Below, piece after piece: positions 3,022 to 57,512 of a stretch of 64,000 nt of DNA. The stretch lies in IMG/VR virus record IMGVR_UViG_3300027766_000002; one strand, 5' to 3'. Every line of letters begins with the position of its first letter. Position 1 is the first letter of the stretch. Position numbers and translations under genes: made by a program. The stretch is from a virus. Its lineage: Duplodnaviria; Heunggongvirae; Uroviricota; Caudoviricetes. The notes under the pieces were generated by a model. The model did not search any database, had not been told where the DNA came from, and saw only the letters and a list, made by a program, of their open reading frames with translations.

Positions 3022-4359
3022 ACCACCATTTGCCATACCGGACGCCCATTGTCAGAAGAGTTTGATGATGACTTCCAGAACCGATTAACAGCTTACTACT
3101 GCAAGGATCAGGAGTTCCTGTTGCGCGCCGGGGATTTGGTTGATCCGAGCCAATTTGAAAACGCGGCAAACGCAATATTGGTTAACCTGGTTTCCTCTTA
3201 CTTCCGCATGTACAAGAGCGCACCTTCCAGCACGGCCATTCTCGACCAGCTGAAGCGCGCGAAGAAAGATAAGACGATCCGCGAAGAGCTGTTCCCGGAT
3301 GTGGTCGGCGCCTTCAAGCGTGTATTGGGTGAGAAATTGACAGACACCAAATACATGATTGACCGAGTGGCCACTTTTGCCCGGAGCATAGCTTTTGATG
3401 ACGCGCTGATCAAAGCGGCCGAGCTAAAAGAGAAGGGTGACTTCGAACGCGCCATGGAAGTGATGGCCAAGGTGCAGCTGGTGGGCGCGAGTGACACCAT
3501 AGGCATCTACAACTATCTGGGCGAAGCGGCCGAGCGTTTAAAGCAGCGTGAGTATGAGGCGTCTGAGGATTACGTACCAAACAGCATCACTACCGGCATA
3601 CCGCTGCTGGATCGACTGCTGTACCAGAAAGGGTGGGGGCGTCGTGAAATGGTTCTCTTCATGGGCTTCGCGAAGTCTGGTAAATCGACGGCCATGGGTG
3701 AGTTCTCCATTAACGCTACTTTAAAGGGCTTCAACGTTCTGTACGTCTCGCTGGAAGTTCACACCGCAATCTTGTCTGACCGTTTCGACGCACGTCTTTC
3801 TCAAACCGAAATGACGAAGTTGATCGAGAAGCGTGACGATGTTCATAAGAAGCTGGCCGACCTGGGCGCCAGTACCGGTGTGGGCAATTTGTGGGTTGTG
3901 GAGAGACCGTCTGGCAGCTTGTCACCTGCAGACCTCGATCGATTACTTGAAGGCATGAAGTCGAACGGGATGGTTCCTGACATGGTCGTGGTGGATTACG
4001 CCGACCTGATGAAACCAACACGACGCAGCGGCGATGAACGAGCAGATGTGAAAAGCATCTATACCGATCTCCGCGCAGTCTTCGACAAACACAATGCCGC
4101 TGGCATCACTGCATCCCAGACAAACCGAGAGGGTGGGGCGTCTGAGGTAGCCACGATGATGCACGCCGCAGATAACATTGAAAAGGTGCGTATCGCTGAC
4201 CTGGTAATCTCGATCAACAAAACGGAAGAGGAAGCAACGAAGGGTGAAGCGCGCTTGTACTTTGCAGGCTCTCGTAACCAGAAAGGCAACATCAGCATCC
4301 GAGTAAAGCAGAACCTGGAGCAGATGCGGTTTATTCAGGAAATTCTCGACGTTATCTAA
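3019..4359 (+). CDS. DnaB-like replicative DNA helicase (RecA-fold C-terminal domain)
   Basis: Walker A motif GFAKSGKST, followed by Walker B-like VVVDYADLM and a helicase C-terminal domain. 446 aa. Confidence 0.6.
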   Translation: MTTICHTGRPLSEEFDDDFQNRLTAYYCKDQEFLLRAGDLVDPSQFENAANAILVNLVSSYFRMYKSAPSSTAILDQLKRAKKDKTIREELFPDVVGAFKRVLGEKLTDTKYMIDRVATFARSIAFDDALIKAAELKEKGDFERAMEVMAKVQLVGASDTIGIYNYLGEAAERLKQREYEASEDYVPNSITTGIPLLDRLLYQKGWGRREMVLFMGFAKSGKSTAMGEFSINATLKGFNVLYVSLEVHTAILSDRFDARLSQTEMTKLIEKRDDVHKKLADLGASTGVGNLWVVERPSGSLSPADLDRLLEGMKSNGMVPDMVVVDYADLMKPTRRSGDERADVKSIYTDLRAVFDKHNAAGITASQTNREGGASEVATMMHAADNIEKVRIADLVISINKTEEEATKGEARLYFAGSRNQKGNISIRVKQNLEQMRFIQEILDVI

Positions 4360-4450
4360 AAAATAAAGGCGTGGCAAAAATCGCCACGCCTCATTTCCAA
4401 TTCGAGAAATCAAGTTTCTCGCCCTGTTAAAAACAACAAGGGAAAAACAC

Positions 4451-4531
4451 ATGAGCGGCCATCATACCCCATCTTCCCTAATACACACAAAATTGCCTTC
4501 AAATTATGACCGAAGAGGATTGCTGGCATGA
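4451..4531 (+). CDS. 26-codon leader uORF coupled to the primase gene
   Basis: It starts at the conserved GGAAAAACACATG motif. It has no internal stop, and its TGA overlaps the primase ATG (ATGA). Confidence 0.3.
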   Translation: MSGHHTPSSLIHTKLPSNYDRRGLLA

Positions 4532-5708: not shown

Positions 5709-6491
5709 ATGAAGATGCACCCGAATATCACTCATGAAATCACAAAGCTGGTTAGAGATTCAAAGCTGCCGCTGAACGAAGAAGAGTTCGACTCGGTTGT
5801 TGTCCAGGCTATTCAGGCTGGAGCTGACAGAATTGCGACCGCAGAGGCTGGCAAGTTGCTGCTGGCCGACTATCCGTATTTGACGGTCACCATGGTTGTT
5901 GGCGATGTTCGCCCCAGCGTGGGAAACGAAGCGCCTCGATGCGCTGCGATCGTCAGCTTTATCAGCCGAATGGGAGATTCACCTGTCACACATACAGCCG
6001 CTTACTACAACGGCTACATTGTCCAGACCCAGACCGTTCTTGAAGAGCTGCACCGTGACGACCTATGGAAGTTCGTTGAGTTCATGGACGAAAAATGCGA
6101 AAGCGTGGAGTCCTCTTCGGCCATAAAAGAACTATGGGCAACGAGTGTGGTTGGTGACGACAACACTGCAAATATGAGTGTCCCGGAAGGCATGGTTGAC
6201 CTGGTTCTGGAAGGGCGAGGAACCGCCACCAAAGCGGCTAATGAGAAGAACTTCCCAGCGTTAATGAAATTGACCGGTGGCGATCGTCGCAAGCAGGACA
6301 TTATCAACGCCTGCAGTTCAGCCTGCGATGGCGTTATGGGCGAGTACGAACGTCGCCTGGTGAAGATGTCTAACGAAATGCCAATGTTGATGCAGGAAGC
6401 CAAATCATACGCTCTGCACACCGCTGAAGAGCTTCTGAAGCCTTTCCGCGACCGACAACACGCCGTCATGTCTGGCTGGGGAAGCTGGTAG
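5709..6491 (+). CDS. Hypothetical protein
   Basis: 260 aa ORF followed by a hairpin + T-run terminator at 6509-6530. Confidence 0.5.
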   Translation: MKMHPNITHEITKLVRDSKLPLNEEEFDSVVVQAIQAGADRIATAEAGKLLLADYPYLTVTMVVGDVRPSVGNEAPRCAAIVSFISRMGDSPVTHTAAYYNGYIVQTQTVLEELHRDDLWKFVEFMDEKCESVESSSAIKELWATSVVGDDNTANMSVPEGMVDLVLEGRGTATKAANEKNFPALMKLTGGDRRKQDIINACSSACDGVMGEYERRLVKMSNEMPMLMQEAKSYALHTAEELLKPFRDRQHAVMSGWGSW

Positions 6492-13166: not shown

Positions 13167-13621
13167 CAGACGCAGAACTGGAACAGCAGCTGCTCGACAA
13201 AGGACTAACCGCACCGCGCGTTACGCTGGAGCACATCGAGAGCCTGATTGCTGAAGAGCATTATTTCTCAGCTTACGACGGCATTCGATCAGCTAACCAG
13301 GGCGTCGATGCAGCTTGGTGGGCTAACACGGCCGCCGACCGTCATACGTTTTGCTATTTGCTACTGACCAACGGTTACACTGTCACGGGCGAGAATGCGT
13401 GTGTTAGCAAAGAAAACTTTGATCCTGAGTTGAGCCGCCAGCTGGCGCGCCGCAACGCTATTGCAAAAATTTGGCCTCTTGAGGGCTACCTTTTAAAACA
13501 AACATTGAATGATGAACAGAATGGTAAAAGTGAAAATTTATGGCAAAGAACAGTGCGCCTACTGCAAAAACGCAAAGGAACTGGCCGAACAACTACAGAG
13601 CCAGGGCAAGCTGACGTTTGA
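13163..13621 (+). CDS. Hypothetical protein
   Basis: ATGA overlap with the upstream stop. Its 3' end overlaps the glutaredoxin gene by about 100 nt, so the true end is uncertain. Confidence 0.4.
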   Translation: MTDAELEQQLLDKGLTAPRVTLEHIESLIAEEHYFSAYDGIRSANQGVDAAWWANTAADRHTFCYLLLTNGYTVTGENACVSKENFDPELSRQLARRNAIAKIWPLEGYLLKQTLNDEQNGKSENLWQRTVRLLQKRKGTGRTTTEPGQADV

Positions 13622-53582: not shown

Positions 53583-54197
53583 ATGATTGCCGCAGAGAAG
53601 ATTAAAAAGCGCGAGCGTGACAAAGAGCTGCGCGACCTGTGGCGCACTCCGCGATGGCTATTTGAGGCCATTCAGAAATACCTTGGCATCCAGTTTGACG
53701 TTGACGTGGCTTGTGATGCCGGCAATGCCCTACTGCCTAACTTTATCGGCAAGGAAAGAGACGCGCTTGTTTGTGATTGGGGTGAACCTGGCACAAATGC
53801 TTTTCTCAATCCGCCGTATTCCAAGATTAGACCCTGGATAGAGGCAGCTATGCGTGAGCAGCGTCGCGGCGTATCGACAGTAATGTTGATCCCCCAATCA
53901 CTTGATACCGCCTGGTATGAGTTCGCCACAGAATCAGCTAATGAGACGGTGGTGCTGACCGGTGGGCGTGTAGCCTTTCTGGAACCAGGCGTGGAGCTGG
54001 GGATGGTAGAAGTACGTGAAAACCCTGGTGGGAGTATGCTGGTGGTCTTCCGCGGCCACTGCCACCAGGCTGGGCACATTCTTCGCAAGGTTTCACTGCC
54101 AGTAATGAAAGAGCTGGGTGGTTATGATCCTTCAAAAGCAATCAGAAAGAAGCGCCCCTCCAAGAAGAAACAACCCACGTTGGAGGTGGCAGCTTAG
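53583..54197 (+). CDS. dam: Phage Dam-type DNA N6-adenine methyltransferase
   Basis: WRTPRWLFEAI…DVACD…NPPYS motifs typical of the small phage N6-adenine MTase family. Confidence 0.65.
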   Translation: MIAAEKIKKRERDKELRDLWRTPRWLFEAIQKYLGIQFDVDVACDAGNALLPNFIGKERDALVCDWGEPGTNAFLNPPYSKIRPWIEAAMREQRRGVSTVMLIPQSLDTAWYEFATESANETVVLTGGRVAFLEPGVELGMVEVRENPGGSMLVVFRGHCHQAGHILRKVSLPVMKELGGYDPSKAIRKKRPSKKKQPTLEVAA

Positions 54198-54380: not shown

Positions 54381-54614
54381 ATGGCACACCCTACCAACGT
54401 AGTGGCACTGATCGACACTGATTTTCTCGCCAATGCACGTCAGCTACTCAAAAGCCGCGATCAGTCATTCACGCTTTATGAGTGGGCGCTTAAGGCGATC
54501 CGCGGTGGACAGCATACCAATGAAGTTGAGCAGCTGATCGGCGAGTTAATCAACGAAGTTCATGGGCTGAATGTTCAACTTCACGGCCGCACTGAGCAGA
54601 AAGCCACCGCTTAA
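54381..54614 (+). CDS. Hypothetical protein
   Basis: Preceded by AAAGGAATTACACATG. 77 aa. Confidence 0.4.
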   Translation: MAHPTNVVALIDTDFLANARQLLKSRDQSFTLYEWALKAIRGGQHTNEVEQLIGELINEVHGLNVQLHGRTEQKATA

Positions 54615-54649
54615 AATAGTAACCTTATTAAATAGTCATTTAGCTATTT

Positions 54650-55150
54650 ACCGTCTGATCTGCCAGTGCTAACATCCCGCCGTCATTTCTCGGAATGGCT
54701 CGGCAGATGGGTGGAGGATTATGGCGCTGGCGTCTGCTTAAAGGAACCTGTTACCAGCGATCGAACCGGGACGCGAAAGCCGCTCGGGGAGAGGGAGAAT
54801 CAAAGCAGGAGAGAAAAGGAGTCACTGTAGGTTGTCGAAACCAGACGAGTTCCAAGAGGTTGGTGTCTGGTGTTCCCCTCCTACAGTGAGGAAGGATCTT
54901 GATTCTGGGGTATTGCTGCCCACAACCTTCCTAACCGGGACTGGCATTGGATCTCGGTCATAGTTTCTGGCTATGATTTGCTCAGGTTAGCGTGGGATTT
55001 TCAACCCTGCTTCCCTGGGTGAATTATATCCAGAACACACAACCTCTCACTCCGTTCGAGGGAAACCTCACATTCGTTCGGTTTCTCACTTCTAAACCCA
55101 TTCTGGGTATTATCTTATATTTTCAAATAGATACTAATTGCGCGCGAGAA
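54650..55150. ncRNA. Candidate structured non-coding RNA region (about 450 nt, GC-rich, multiple hairpins)
   Basis: There is no credible ORF. Stems include ggagtcactgtagg/cctacagtga, ccagac…gtctgg, ggaagg/ccttcc and atctgcc/ggcagat. Confidence 0.3.
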
Positions 55151-55220
55151 ATTTGCGAATTTCATTGATCTATACCATTAATCATATATGATTTGGTTAA
55201 TGGAGATTATGGAGGTTTGC

Positions 55221-55811
55221 ATGAAAAAGTTAGATATTAGTGATCACATCTATACCAGACTGGCTAAGCACGCAGTCGGCTTTGAAACCCCTGAAAGCGT
55301 AATCGAACGACTGCTAGATGCTTATGAGATTGTTCCGGGGCAGAAACCCAAATTGACTTTCATACCTGAAAATGAAGAAGAATTTAAAGCAAGACTAGTT
55401 GAATCTCGTCATGCTTACGTCGAACTCAGAATGGAAGATGGCACGATTCAGGCCGGTGAATGGAGCGCTCATTCATTCAAAGATAGCTCTAACTTAAGAG
55501 CGAATATCTGGTCAGGTTATCTTCGAAATTGGTCGAAGAGGGGAATTGTTGCAGCAACTTTTGAGGTCGTAATGTCCCCGAACAGTGAAGACCAAATTGT
55601 ACAATCCGCCAAATTCGAAAAGTACGTAATTAACCAACACGCCAGTGGCTCCATTTCCGTTAAGGTAAATGATATGGATGCAAGACCAGTTAAACCAGTG
55701 CTGAGGAAGATAGCTGAGGCACTTGATGTCAGCATTGTCAATTCAAACAACAATGATCTTAATACACGCCAGCTTGGGGCATCGATTATCAAAGCTCTTA
55801 ACCCCTTATAA
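55221..55811 (+). CDS. Hypothetical protein (AT-rich)
   Basis: GGAGG Shine-Dalgarno before the ATG at 55221. Low GC. Followed by a terminator at 55801-55822. Confidence 0.45.
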   Translation: MKKLDISDHIYTRLAKHAVGFETPESVIERLLDAYEIVPGQKPKLTFIPENEEEFKARLVESRHAYVELRMEDGTIQAGEWSAHSFKDSSNLRANIWSGYLRNWSKRGIVAATFEVVMSPNSEDQIVQSAKFEKYVINQHASGSISVKVNDMDARPVKPVLRKIAEALDVSIVNSNNNDLNTRQLGASIIKALNPL

Positions 55812-55984: not shown

Positions 55985-56296
55985 GTGAACATGTTGTTGT
56001 CTTACGCAGACGTTTTGACCGGCATTAAAACCGGCGCCTCCTTCGCTCGTCAGAAATGGCCTGCCGACACATCCATACGACTCCGCACCGGGGTGATCAG
56101 CTCAAGCGAATACCAGAAAACTGAAGGCAAAGTGTTCTTCGGCCTTCCGCTCAACCTTTTTGAAGTCCACCAGCCAGATGGTTACACCGTATTTCCTGGT
56201 TTAGAGATGGTTCTTCCAAATGGCAAGGTGGTTGATTACCTGGCTTCGATGATTGACCAGCTCGCCTGCGATTGGAAACGAGTGGAAACTAAATGA
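55985..56296 (+). CDS. Hypothetical protein (DUF2829-like; a paralogue of 12678..13166)
   Basis: 103 aa. Shares an ARxKW…DW pattern with the 12678 ORF. Confidence 0.4.
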   Translation: MNMLLSYADVLTGIKTGASFARQKWPADTSIRLRTGVISSSEYQKTEGKVFFGLPLNLFEVHQPDGYTVFPGLEMVLPNGKVVDYLASMIDQLACDWKRVETK

Positions 56297-57086: not shown

Positions 57087-57512
57087 ATGTTTGGTTTGCT
57101 GAAAAAGAAAACCCGTAAAGCAGTAATCGAAGTTAAAAAAATGGAGAACCGCGACGCGGTTGAAGCGACTGTCTGGGGCGGTTACTACATTTCATATTTC
57201 GATGGCGACTGCTCACCAGCAGAAGTCGCTGTGCTTGAAAAGACCATGGCCGCAACTCCTTCATTTGCGCCTTTCGCTGGTGAGATCGCTCAGCTCAGCT
57301 CTAACGTGCGTCAGCAGTTCGAAGCAAGCGCACGCCGCGCAGCTGCCCAGGCTCTTCGTGAGTTAGAAGATATTGCAGGCACCACTGATGCAGTGGACGT
57401 TCTGTGCCTGTGTATCGACATTGCTGACAACGATGGCATTGGCGAAGACGAAATGAAAGCCCTTAAGAAGATTGCTCAGGCACTTCAACTTTCACTCGAT
57501 CCGTACATCTGA
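57087..57512 (+). CDS. TerB-like domain protein (tentative)
   Basis: Preceded by AAAGGAAAAACGCATG. The C-terminal DIADNDGIGEDEMKALKKIAQAL resembles a TerB motif. Confidence 0.35.
   Translation: MFGLLKKKTRKAVIEVKKMENRDAVEATVWGGYYISYFDGDCSPAEVAVLEKTMAATPSFAPFAGEIAQLSSNVRQQFEASARRAAAQALRELEDIAGTTDAVDVLCLCIDIADNDGIGEDEMKALKKIAQALQLSLDPYI

Follow-up and report, generated by a model that had tools for sequence, protein, structure and literature searches.

Several families of large, ornate RNAs are known from bacteria and their phages, among them ROOL, GOLLD, OLE and raiA, all of which lack a known biochemical function, and ROOL and GOLLD are often phage-borne (PMC12286853, PMC10861870). The locus described here belongs to an SSU5/pHCM2-type phage-plasmid, of which we analyzed one stretch of 64 kb (hereafter the window), and we use the name T1 for the structured RNA found at positions 54682-55111 on its + strand. 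T1 resembles the four families in its length of several hundred nucleotides, its many covarying helices and its many invariant unpaired nucleotides; it is also a discrete gene and, as are ROOL and GOLLD, is carried by mobile elements. Unlike them, T1 occurs in phage-plasmids of Enterobacteriaceae and not in Firmicutes or rumen phages, is tied to a gene for a 77-aa protein instead of lying beside tRNA genes, and has no match to any Rfam 15 model.

Three further groups of RNAs invite comparison. Like the c4 RNA of P1/P7, CB of N15 and CI of P4, T1 is made in the lysogen of a phage-plasmid, contains repeated loop words and is transcribed from a promoter inside a rightward gene block that leads, in some relatives, to an antirepressor; unlike these RNAs of ~80-100 nt, T1 measures ~430 nt, possesses a five-arm core that is missing there, and has neither a match to the C4 model nor, for its repeated loop, a complementary target in the window or in 48 kb of SSU5. 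RNA II of ColE1, which measures ~500 nt, is structured, plasmid-borne and rich in G in some stretches. T1 shares these three traits, and a functional link with RNase H is conceivable, but no RNA I counterpart was found for it, the Rep-protein replicon lies elsewhere, and the RNA is retained in elements without rnhA. CsrB/CsrC and 6S are stable trans-acting RNAs that sequester proteins, and the repeated surface motifs of T1 could similarly titrate a protein; T1 differs in having only two copies of its loop, in GGA motifs that are not conserved between clades and in the absence of an Rfam match.

We regard it as very probable that T1 is a real structured RNA gene. Whether its product is a trans-acting RNA or a ribonucleoprotein particle is a separate matter, for which we see slightly less than an even chance. 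The best explanation overall, which we hold with somewhat better than even confidence, is that SSU5/pHCM2-type phage-plasmids carry an independent gene whose product is a large non-coding RNA, ~430 nt long and highly structured.

The locus and its distribution

The first-pass annotation of the window had singled out its longest gap as a region without a credible ORF, and this description stands: at a threshold of 75 aa, the 573 nt at 54615-55187 are the longest internal stretch without an ORF, and the ORFs within it are only 33-64 aa long, none of them conserved. The accompanying description as GC-rich is correct relative to the following ORF (0.514 vs 0.423) and incorrect in absolute terms, the mean of the window being 0.488. 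The features of the locus are collected in Table 1.

Table 1. Features of the T1 locus and its flanks, in window coordinates.
Feature	Position	Strand	Basis or remark
Gene for 77-aa protein (phrog_5343)	54381..54614	+	Invariant upstream neighbour of the RNA
Sigma-70-type promoter: TTTACC (54647-52), 17-nt spacer, TG (54667-68), TAACAT (54670-75)	54647..54675	+	Conserved hexamers
Structured RNA T1, ~430 nt	54682..55111, 3' end possibly to ~55125 in U-rich tail	+	RNAalifold, nhmmer
5' hairpin at inferred start (GUCAUU / AAUGGC)	54682..54699	+	Alignments
5' domain: long hairpin 54702-54738; helix 54747-52/54804-09 enclosing 54754-58/54782-88	54702..54809	+	Helices 2-4
Conserved purine-rich linker (GGGGAGAGGGAGAAUCAAAGCAGGAGAGAAAAGGAG)	54785..54822	+	Conserved alignment blocks
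Central domain: 3-bp closing helix 54818-20/55029-31 around five arms	54818..55031	+	Helices 6-15
Five central arms	54823-54888, 54889-54932, 54934-54958, 54959-54975, 54982-55018	+	Helices 6-15
Invariant apical loop AGAGGUUG	54855..54862	+	Complementary to invariant CAACCUCU at 55040-55047
Two tandem 3' hairpins with the same loop word	55039..55085	+	Alignment, covariation
First 3' hairpin, CCUC-UCACUCCGUUC-GAGG	55043-61	+	23-nt block invariant in family
Second 3' hairpin, GAAACC-UCACAUUCGUUC-GGUUUC	55062-85	+	Compensatory pairs 3/6
Weak terminator-like hairpin ACCCA-UUC-UGGGU with U-rich tail	55096..55125 (site 55096-55108)	+	Terminator-like site
AT-rich ORF, 196 aa (context only)	55221..55811	+	Insertion in variable slot holding rnhA in most relatives

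A megablast search against phage records gave no match, and sensitive blastn matched 54706-55080 to Salmonella phage SSU5, Escherichia phage Cyrano and Klebsiella phage-plasmids at 68-70% identity. T1 was found in 681 PLSDB plasmids, 12 phage records, 79 IMG/VR contigs (retrieved by a 23-nt invariant block) and 232 of 5,426 complete E. coli genomes; almost none of these carriers has an annotation in the region. The PLSDB hosts include Klebsiella, Escherichia, Enterobacter, Salmonella, Citrobacter, Cronobacter and others, the matching plasmids are nearly all non-mobilizable and of ~105-120 kb, and the closest record is the Enterobacter plasmid pCP102 (97% identity). In E. coli, it is the Cyrano version that is present in 4% of the complete genomes; all its occurrences except two are on plasmids, and PGAP gives it no annotation. 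Conservation covers the full ~430 nt on the + strand, with ~58-69% identity between the clade of the window and that of SSU5, and in every relative the nhmmer match runs over model positions 4-460. With a covariance model built on 54823-54932, the window yielded a single hit (105 bits), as did 48 kb of SSU5. Existing annotations also require correction, since the start of the SSU5 'RNase H' CDS and the Cyrano CDS CYRAN_81 both fall inside the RNA.

The 23-nt block additionally occurs in Buttiauxella and Kluyvera genomes. A 21-23-nt form of the hairpin block was further seen in a GC-rich phage lineage and a few MAGs, where its contexts include the inside of a 442-aa ORF and the ribosome-binding region of an anti-sigma gene (Acidobacteria). 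We considered this block as a widespread functional motif and rejected it, because the contexts are unrelated and the count is near chance expectation.

Fold, covariation and non-coding nature of T1

Covariation was assessed in an alignment of 16 representatives, one per 3%-divergence cluster, four of which constitute the clade of the window; over the 583-nt extract this clade is ~58% identical to the SSU5 clade. From the 16 sequences RNAalifold predicted 103 pairs, 33 of them with compensatory double changes, and 98.7% of the 1,648 cells form a standard pair, as compared with 91.4 ± 0.4 in shuffled controls, none of which (0/500) reached the observed value. When the 3' partners were slid by 1-3 columns, only 1-5 compensatory pairs were counted, and the covariation score, 0.317 in the true register, lay between 0.04 and 0.08. 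The compensatory changes mostly separate the two clades and thus represent few independent events per pair, yet they affect 33 different pairs and leave almost no broken cells. Base-pairing is therefore conserved in relatives, a check that the first-pass annotation had proposed. All three perfect stems quoted in that annotation are present, namely tcactgtagg/cctacagtga (54822-31/54880-89), ccagac/gtctgg (54841-46/54865-70) and ggaagg/ccttcc (54890-95/54926-31); they correspond to helices 7, 9 and 11 and covary across relatives. The 10-bp stem, for example, reads CACUGUAGG/CCUACAGUG in the window and CACUUUAUG/CAUAAAGUG in SSU5, with a U·G intermediate in one Klebsiella lineage.

Fixed or alternating G·U pairs are numerous (for example, in alignment columns 44-62, 281-286, 303-309 and 334-347); read from the opposite strand they would be A·C, so it is the + strand that folds. 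Thermodynamic folding showed the same asymmetry: the + strand of 54640-55120 has a minimum free energy of -172.7 kcal/mol (z = -2.77), which no dinucleotide shuffle matched (0/100), whereas the - strand has z = -1.47 and 10 of 100 shuffles were as good. The comparative analysis thus shows ~15-18 predicted helices on the + strand that are kept by compensatory changes.

These observations also bear on the reading of the region as a DNA-level element (a packaging site, an origin or a single-strand initiation signal) or as a decayed or frameshifted gene, neither of which would involve an RNA; we consider this highly improbable. Inverted repeats are present in the region, and some records start near the locus (PQ492289, NZ_CP030322 and NZ_CP040729), but the starts of circular-plasmid records are arbitrary, and in the SSU5 virion record the locus lies at 78.8 kb of 103 kb. 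A double-stranded DNA site such as pac or ori, which the first-pass annotation had offered as an option, leaves unexplained why pairs are kept via G·U intermediates on one strand only; moreover, the region is transcribed and has a conserved promoter directed into it (see below). A decayed gene is at odds with the stop codons in all six frames of all 16 representatives (3-15 per frame per member) and with the lack of codon periodicity, the 164 between-clade substitutions being distributed 56/56/52 by position modulo 3. Indels are mostly not multiples of 3, and gap lengths are mostly 1 or 2. The stops in every frame together with the missing periodicity rule out a coding or frameshifted ORF, the latter being the discovery that would have spoken against an RNA according to the first-pass annotation. 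The T1 region is non-coding.

Within this fold, conservation is distributed unevenly. The sequence of the 5' hairpin is wholly different in each clade (CCGGAUUGAUUCCGG, CCAGUCGUAGACUGG, GAUUUCGA..UCGAAAUC), and the hairpin itself is always kept. The 5' domain comprises 24 pairs, 7 of them compensatory, with 96-99.5% of cells paired. In the purine-rich linker, AGAAUC (54796-54801) could form a 6-bp pseudoknot with GAUUCU (54901-54906); this candidate is 100% paired in 16/16 sequences, with 1 compensatory and 2 one-sided changes. The first of the five central arms contains the 10-bp and 6-bp stems mentioned above, and its apical loop AGAGGUUG is a candidate for long-range pairing with CAACCUCU: the complementary words are present in both the window and SSU5, and 8 of 8 pairs can form in all 16 sequences, a match that never varies and is hence neutral with respect to covariation. 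Almost every SSU5-type locus contains two copies of the loop word TCACTNCGTTC, and the tandem 3' loops both carry UCAC(N1-2)UUCGUUC. The terminator-like helix is kept through G·U changes (CCCA/UGGG vs CCUG/UGGG). Two different strands of T1 share one co-varying word, so that alternative, possibly intermolecular, pairings are also conserved; this is no more than a hint of homo-oligomerisation through intermolecular helices, the behaviour of ROOL and GOLLD. Taken together, the invariant unpaired nucleotides and the candidate long-range pairings point to a compact tertiary fold.

The whole window gave no match to Rfam 15 at the gathering score. At E <= 10, the region of the window, its SSU5 counterpart and the Klebsiella T2 region described below yielded only microRNA-model noise, with 20-27 bits against cut-offs of 45-85; the families covered include ROOL, GOLLD, OLE, raiA, HEARO, group I/II introns, RNase P, tmRNA, 6S, CsrB, C4 and RNAI. 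The Rfam scan proposed at the outset thus identified no family, and the suggestion of an intron remnant or a known ribozyme found no counterpart at either threshold. ARAGORN found no tRNA or tmRNA gene in the 64-kb window. In our literature search an RNA at this locus was nowhere described; T1 could be among the 10,006 candidates in a bulk catalogue of viral structured RNAs (PMC10690425). Judged by these comparisons, T1 constitutes a new large structured RNA family that shows no detectable relation to any known one. It displays what is generally expected of a structured non-coding RNA gene, that is, compensatory pairs, no coding signal, a promoter and a published transcription signal.

Promoter, expression and neighbouring genes

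The promoter lies ~30 nt past the stop codon of the 77-aa gene, with its TG one base before the -10 box, and the consensus in the family is TTtAcn-17-(TGn)TAnnAT. The positions that define the hexamers are invariant in the family, and the sequence of the spacer varies. In 64 of 64 distinct upstream sequences the best sigma-70 match was found at the same aligned place; its spacer invariably measured 17 nt, and TGn was present in most. Transcription would thus start near G54682.

Published RNA-seq data supply the transcript evidence. In E. coli LF82 grown in LB, CYRAN_81 was expressed 12-fold above the prophage median and was among the few Cyrano genes at 5-fold or more, a list from which the flanking CYRAN_80 (the 77-aa gene) and CYRAN_82 (RNase H) are absent (PMC9928086). 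CYRAN_81 is a spurious 44-aa CDS (78657-78791) located wholly within the Cyrano copy of the RNA, and the evidence accordingly comes from a single strain, as the gene-level value of a short CDS that is itself mis-annotated. Because CYRAN_81 reached this level and its neighbours were unlisted, the RNA region appears to be autonomously expressed in the plasmid (lysogenic) state. Of the interpretations in the first-pass annotation, that of a structured non-coding RNA is therefore strongly supported, by covariation, strand-specific G·U pairs, a conserved promoter and published expression. Since the 3' hairpin is a weak terminator, the RNA may be partly read through into rnhA, and, with no terminator after the 77-aa gene, a long operon transcript probably includes the region as well during lytic growth. 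An antisense promoter-like site opposite the 3' part of the RNA is good only in the clade of the window, and a conserved antisense promoter was rejected on this basis.

Gene order around T1 is constant and consists of a Dam-type methyltransferase gene, the 77-aa gene, a gap of ~580 nt and then usually rnhA. In every annotated relative, a homologue of the 77-aa gene immediately precedes the conserved non-coding region. A metagenome scan with an alignment of the 77-aa homologues recovered 66 loci; all 63 complete ones contain a large conserved non-coding region ~50 nt past the 77-aa gene, which is T1 in 55 and a different one, T2, in 8, and three loci that are Pectobacterium-like or truncated have no non-coding region at that place. 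The 77-aa protein belongs to a PHROG family without assigned function and matched no Pfam family and nothing in PADLOC. A single-sequence AlphaFold model (pLDDT 59) was too poor for a fold search; our impression is of a putative ribbon-helix-helix-like protein. It is the first candidate for a partner or regulator of the RNA.

On the downstream side, rnhA starts within 400 nt in 97 of the 115 testable T1 loci, and the remaining 18, including the window, have another gene on either strand (IS elements, a LysR-type regulator, lipoproteins or unknown ORFs). The AT-rich ORF of the window illustrates this variability. The statement in the first-pass annotation that the structured region stands upstream of this gene is true for the window but incidental, the gene being a lineage-specific insertion at a place where most relatives have rnhA; it is absent from the 97%-identical pCP102, which joins ~55150 to ~55830. 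The ORF has its own promoter-like site at 55165-55192 and a weak N-terminal match to DUF7557 below the Pfam cut-off, with no PHROG or PADLOC match.

The position of T1 suggests that it could be a cis-acting 5' leader that controls the downstream genes, normally rnhA and accessory genes, by attenuation, antitermination or translation control. The RNA is on the same strand as rnhA and directly upstream of it in the 97 loci, our reading of the alignment revealed no separate convincing rnhA promoter between the two, and the weakness of the 3' terminator would allow transcription to continue. We nevertheless regard a leader as unlikely. Elements that lack rnhA or have something else in its place, in some cases a minus-strand gene or an IS element, still carry an intact RNA, promoter and 77-aa gene, and in the window the next ORF has a promoter-like site of its own. 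In the LF82 lysogen, the 12-fold expression of the RNA region over background contrasts with an unlisted rnhA gene, and 430 nt with a five-arm core far exceeds known bacterial leaders. A leader or riboswitch would have a constant downstream gene, and here 18 of 115 T1 loci and 2 of 9 T2 loci depart from the usual one, in some cases with a gene on the other strand. The fixed upstream gene and the variable downstream gene argue against a dedicated leader and support a unit composed of the 77-aa gene and the RNA.

Candidate roles and the sister regions T2 and T3

The RNA sits in a block of DNA-metabolism genes with rnhA as its usual neighbour, which raises the idea of a pre-primer or R-loop RNA of a replication origin, similar to RNA II of ColE1: a G-rich transcript would hybridise to its template and be cut by RNase HI for priming. 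The size and degree of structure of T1 resemble those of RNA II, G clusters are conserved (GGGGAGAGGGAG, GAUGGGUGGAGG), GC skew is +0.2 to +0.4 over 54676-54875 (the 5' half of the RNA), and the RNA is transcribed in the plasmid state; in SSU5-type elements it is followed by an AT-rich stretch and a conserved CG/CA tract. This tract is, however, largely lost in the clade of the window, cumulative GC skew makes no turn at the RNA locus, and the plasmids are typed as IncFIB or rep_cluster replicons whose Rep protein is encoded elsewhere. A replicon of the ColE1 type would have an antisense RNA I gene facing the 5' part of the primer RNA and an origin at the primer's 3' end; neither the RNAI model nor any other Rfam model matched on either strand, and the sole antisense promoter-like site, which faces the 3' part, is strong in the clade of the window only. 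The RNA also persists without rnhA, and a primer needs no invariant unpaired loops. A primer function thus seems quite unlikely to us.

Expression in the lysogen also brings to mind an immunity-type antisense regulator like P1 c4, N15 CB or P4 CI, which would pair with the RNA of a downstream antirepressor or lytic gene and block its expression. An Ant gene is located 1.8 kb downstream on the same strand in SSU5, a Rha-family gene is present in a Klebsiella relative, and tandem hairpins with the same loop word are also a feature of c4-type RNAs. On the other hand, T1 is 4-5 times larger than those RNAs and matches no C4 model in Rfam, and Ant is absent from the corresponding position in Cyrano and in the window. 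The complement of the loop word, GAACGAAGTGA, occurs in the window only as the opposite strand of the RNA itself, and 48 kb of SSU5 contain only chance one-mismatch matches. We consider such a regulator improbable.

T1 has a dedicated promoter, is expressed in the lysogen, adopts a large covarying fold rich in invariant unpaired nucleotides, and combines a fixed upstream with a free downstream neighbour; a stable, tertiary-folded RNA acting in trans fits these features best. We propose that T1 would be a discrete and stable transcript, produced constitutively while the element is a plasmid, and would act in trans as a folded particle, either as RNA alone or with protein. Its invariant unpaired parts, namely the two UCAC..UUCGUUC loops, the purine tract and the AGAGGUUG loop, would serve as binding surfaces. 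Most plausibly the role is a lysogeny-phase task: T1 may help to maintain the element, control its lytic switch or interfere with systems of the host or of competitors; control of whichever gene stands downstream would be less likely than such a task.

The slot between the 77-aa gene and rnhA is not always occupied by T1. In 30 Klebsiella plasmids of other replicon clusters, a 77-aa homologue that is 45-49% identical and rnhA flank a region of ~480 nt, T2, which has its own promoter-like site and a variable 5' hairpin. Seven T2 sequences gave 148 predicted pairs, with 96.7% paired, and 12 compensatory pairs as compared with 0-2 in slid controls. Pectobacterium elements of the Drgb1 type have a third conserved region of ~400 nt, T3, slightly further downstream, with 6 compensatory pairs from two sequences only. 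Profile HMMs in both directions and a covariance model of the T1 core detected no homology among T1, T2 and T3. A bolder proposal, which we put forward tentatively and consider doubtful, is that T1 founds a new class of large, tertiary-folded phage-plasmid RNA that operates as a ribozyme, an RNA-only particle or an RNA-protein particle in the plasmid phase, and that it is one of at least three unrelated large RNAs (T1, T2 and T3) that separate SSU5-like lineages maintain in a shared neighbourhood, which would be a dedicated 'RNA slot'. If true, such a slot would represent a role so far undescribed for temperate phages.

Structured orphan RNAs as long as several hundred nucleotides are seldom encountered, and mostly in hosts that are awkward to study. 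The hosts of T1, in contrast, are tractable: E. coli (4% of complete genomes), S. Typhi (with pHCM2), Klebsiella and Enterobacter are organisms in which gene deletion, complementation in trans, pull-downs, structure probing and cryo-EM are routine. SSU5-type elements spread resistance genes, and T1 is widespread in clinically important Enterobacteriaceae. As one of the few loci that these phage-plasmids express in the lysogen, T1 probably bears on the maintenance of the element or on its lytic switch.

Non-coding regions downstream of the 77-aa gene

T1, the structured RNA directly downstream of the 77-aa gene, is full-length in the metagenome contig L111 (Ga0256408_1000129, 110,345 bp), whose 77-aa protein is 100% identical to that of the window; L111 is probably the origin of the window or an element almost identical to it. 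In Klebsiella plasmids, the slot that T1 fills elsewhere, flanked by the 77-aa gene homologue and rnhA, holds a second conserved non-coding region, T2, of approximately 480 nt and unrelated to T1 in sequence. Thirty Klebsiella plasmids, of replicon types rep_cluster_2469/711, carry T2; its fold comprises 148 predicted pairs, with 12 compensatory pairs as compared with 0-2 in slid controls, and a long covarying inverted repeat encloses a terminator-like hairpin. A third conserved non-coding region, T3 (approximately 400 nt), is present in Pectobacterium-type elements, where it lies 0.5-1 kb 3' of the 77-aa homologue, beyond inserted minus-strand genes. T3 could not be aligned with T1 or T2, and the comparison of its only two sequences yielded 6 compensatory pairs.

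Locations of T1-associated sites, related regions and neighboring genes
Feature	Location	Remarks
T2	L103 (K. pneumoniae pKSB1_7G.2) 3226-3800	further copies L104, L106-L110, L164-L172
T3	L102 (Pectobacterium plasmid Drgb1) 4300-4800; L174 3205-3700	
Invariant T1 hairpin block AACCTCTCACTNCGTTCGAGG	window 55039-55061; L030 6307-6329	further loci listed: L094, L095, L097-L099, L101
11-mer of AACCTCTCACTNCGTTCGAGG	L030, also at 6033-6043 and 13577-13587	
Promoter-like site GTGAGA-16-TATAAT	window 55050-55023, minus strand	10/12 matches
T1 helices sharing a word	window 54747-52/54804-09 and 54989-95/55006-12	A3 (T1 alignment) columns 84-89, 141-146, 329-335, 346-351
CG/CA tract ACACGCACGCGTGCGCGCACGCGCGAGG	L001 (SSU5) ~4440-4500	between T1 and rnhA
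Reduced tract GCGCGCGAG	window 55140-55150	window's clade
SSU5_090 'Rnase H' CDS	NC_018843.1 79147-79911	
CYRAN_81	OV696614.1 (Cyrano) 78657-78791	44 aa
AT-rich ORF	window 55221-55811	196 aa, GC 0.42
rnhA replaced 3' of T1		L085, L086, L100, L117, L153, L156, L158, L163
Dam methyltransferase	window 53583-54197	
Tad2-like ORF	window 55985-56296	103 aa
TerB	window 57087-57512	

Short sites and alternative pairings in T1

The same word occurs in the 5' strand of one T1 helix and in the 3' strand of another, and it covaries at both strands between clades, from CCUG to CUCA. Because both strands change together, conservation extends to the crossed pairings of A3 columns 142-146 with 346-350 and of columns 86-90 with 328-332; an alternative conformation or an intermolecular contact could lie behind this, as could coincidence. 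The promoter-like site on the minus strand is oriented antisense into the T1 central domain; it is a good match in the window's clade alone and a weak one (8/12) in SSU5-type sequences.

The invariant hairpin block of T1 was also observed in unrelated places. In a GC-rich phage lineage (loci L030, L021 and L057), it lies within a 442-aa ORF, its 11-mer occurs three times, and close by is the word CGTGCGCGCACG, which resembles the tract that precedes rnhA in SSU5; the block is additionally found in MAGs of Acidobacteria, Gammaproteobacteria and Bacteroidales. The number of such occurrences outside T1 is approximately that expected by chance.

Between T1 and rnhA, the alternating CG/CA tract of SSU5, which contains a 12-nt perfect palindrome, is conserved at the equivalent place in other SSU5-type loci and is followed by an A8 run. 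This tract, which is reduced in the window's clade, might serve as an operator or as a DNA-level site of another kind.

Gene content and annotation around T1

Two public-record annotations that overlap T1 are erroneous: the start of SSU5_090 reaches approximately 150 nt into T1, PGAP-annotated relatives placing the rnhA start later, and CYRAN_81 is a spurious CDS entirely within T1.

A hotspot of gene turnover lies directly 3' of the T1 3' hairpin. What stands there instead of rnhA, on either strand, is an IS3-like element, a LysR-type regulator, lipoproteins or uncharacterised ORFs (222, 269 and 357 aa). In the window, the AT-rich ORF occupies the place that rnhA holds in most relatives and is an insertion relative to pCP102 (97% identical). 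This ORF, which shows a weak N-terminal match to DUF7557 below the cut-off and no match in PHROG or PADLOC, may be a moron. Farther downstream, the 103-aa ORF has a match to the Tad2-like domain of Pfam (Thoeris anti-defence 2-like), scoring 31.6 bits where the cut-off is 25, which, together with the Dam methyltransferase and TerB, places T1 in an accessory, anti-defence-flavoured block.
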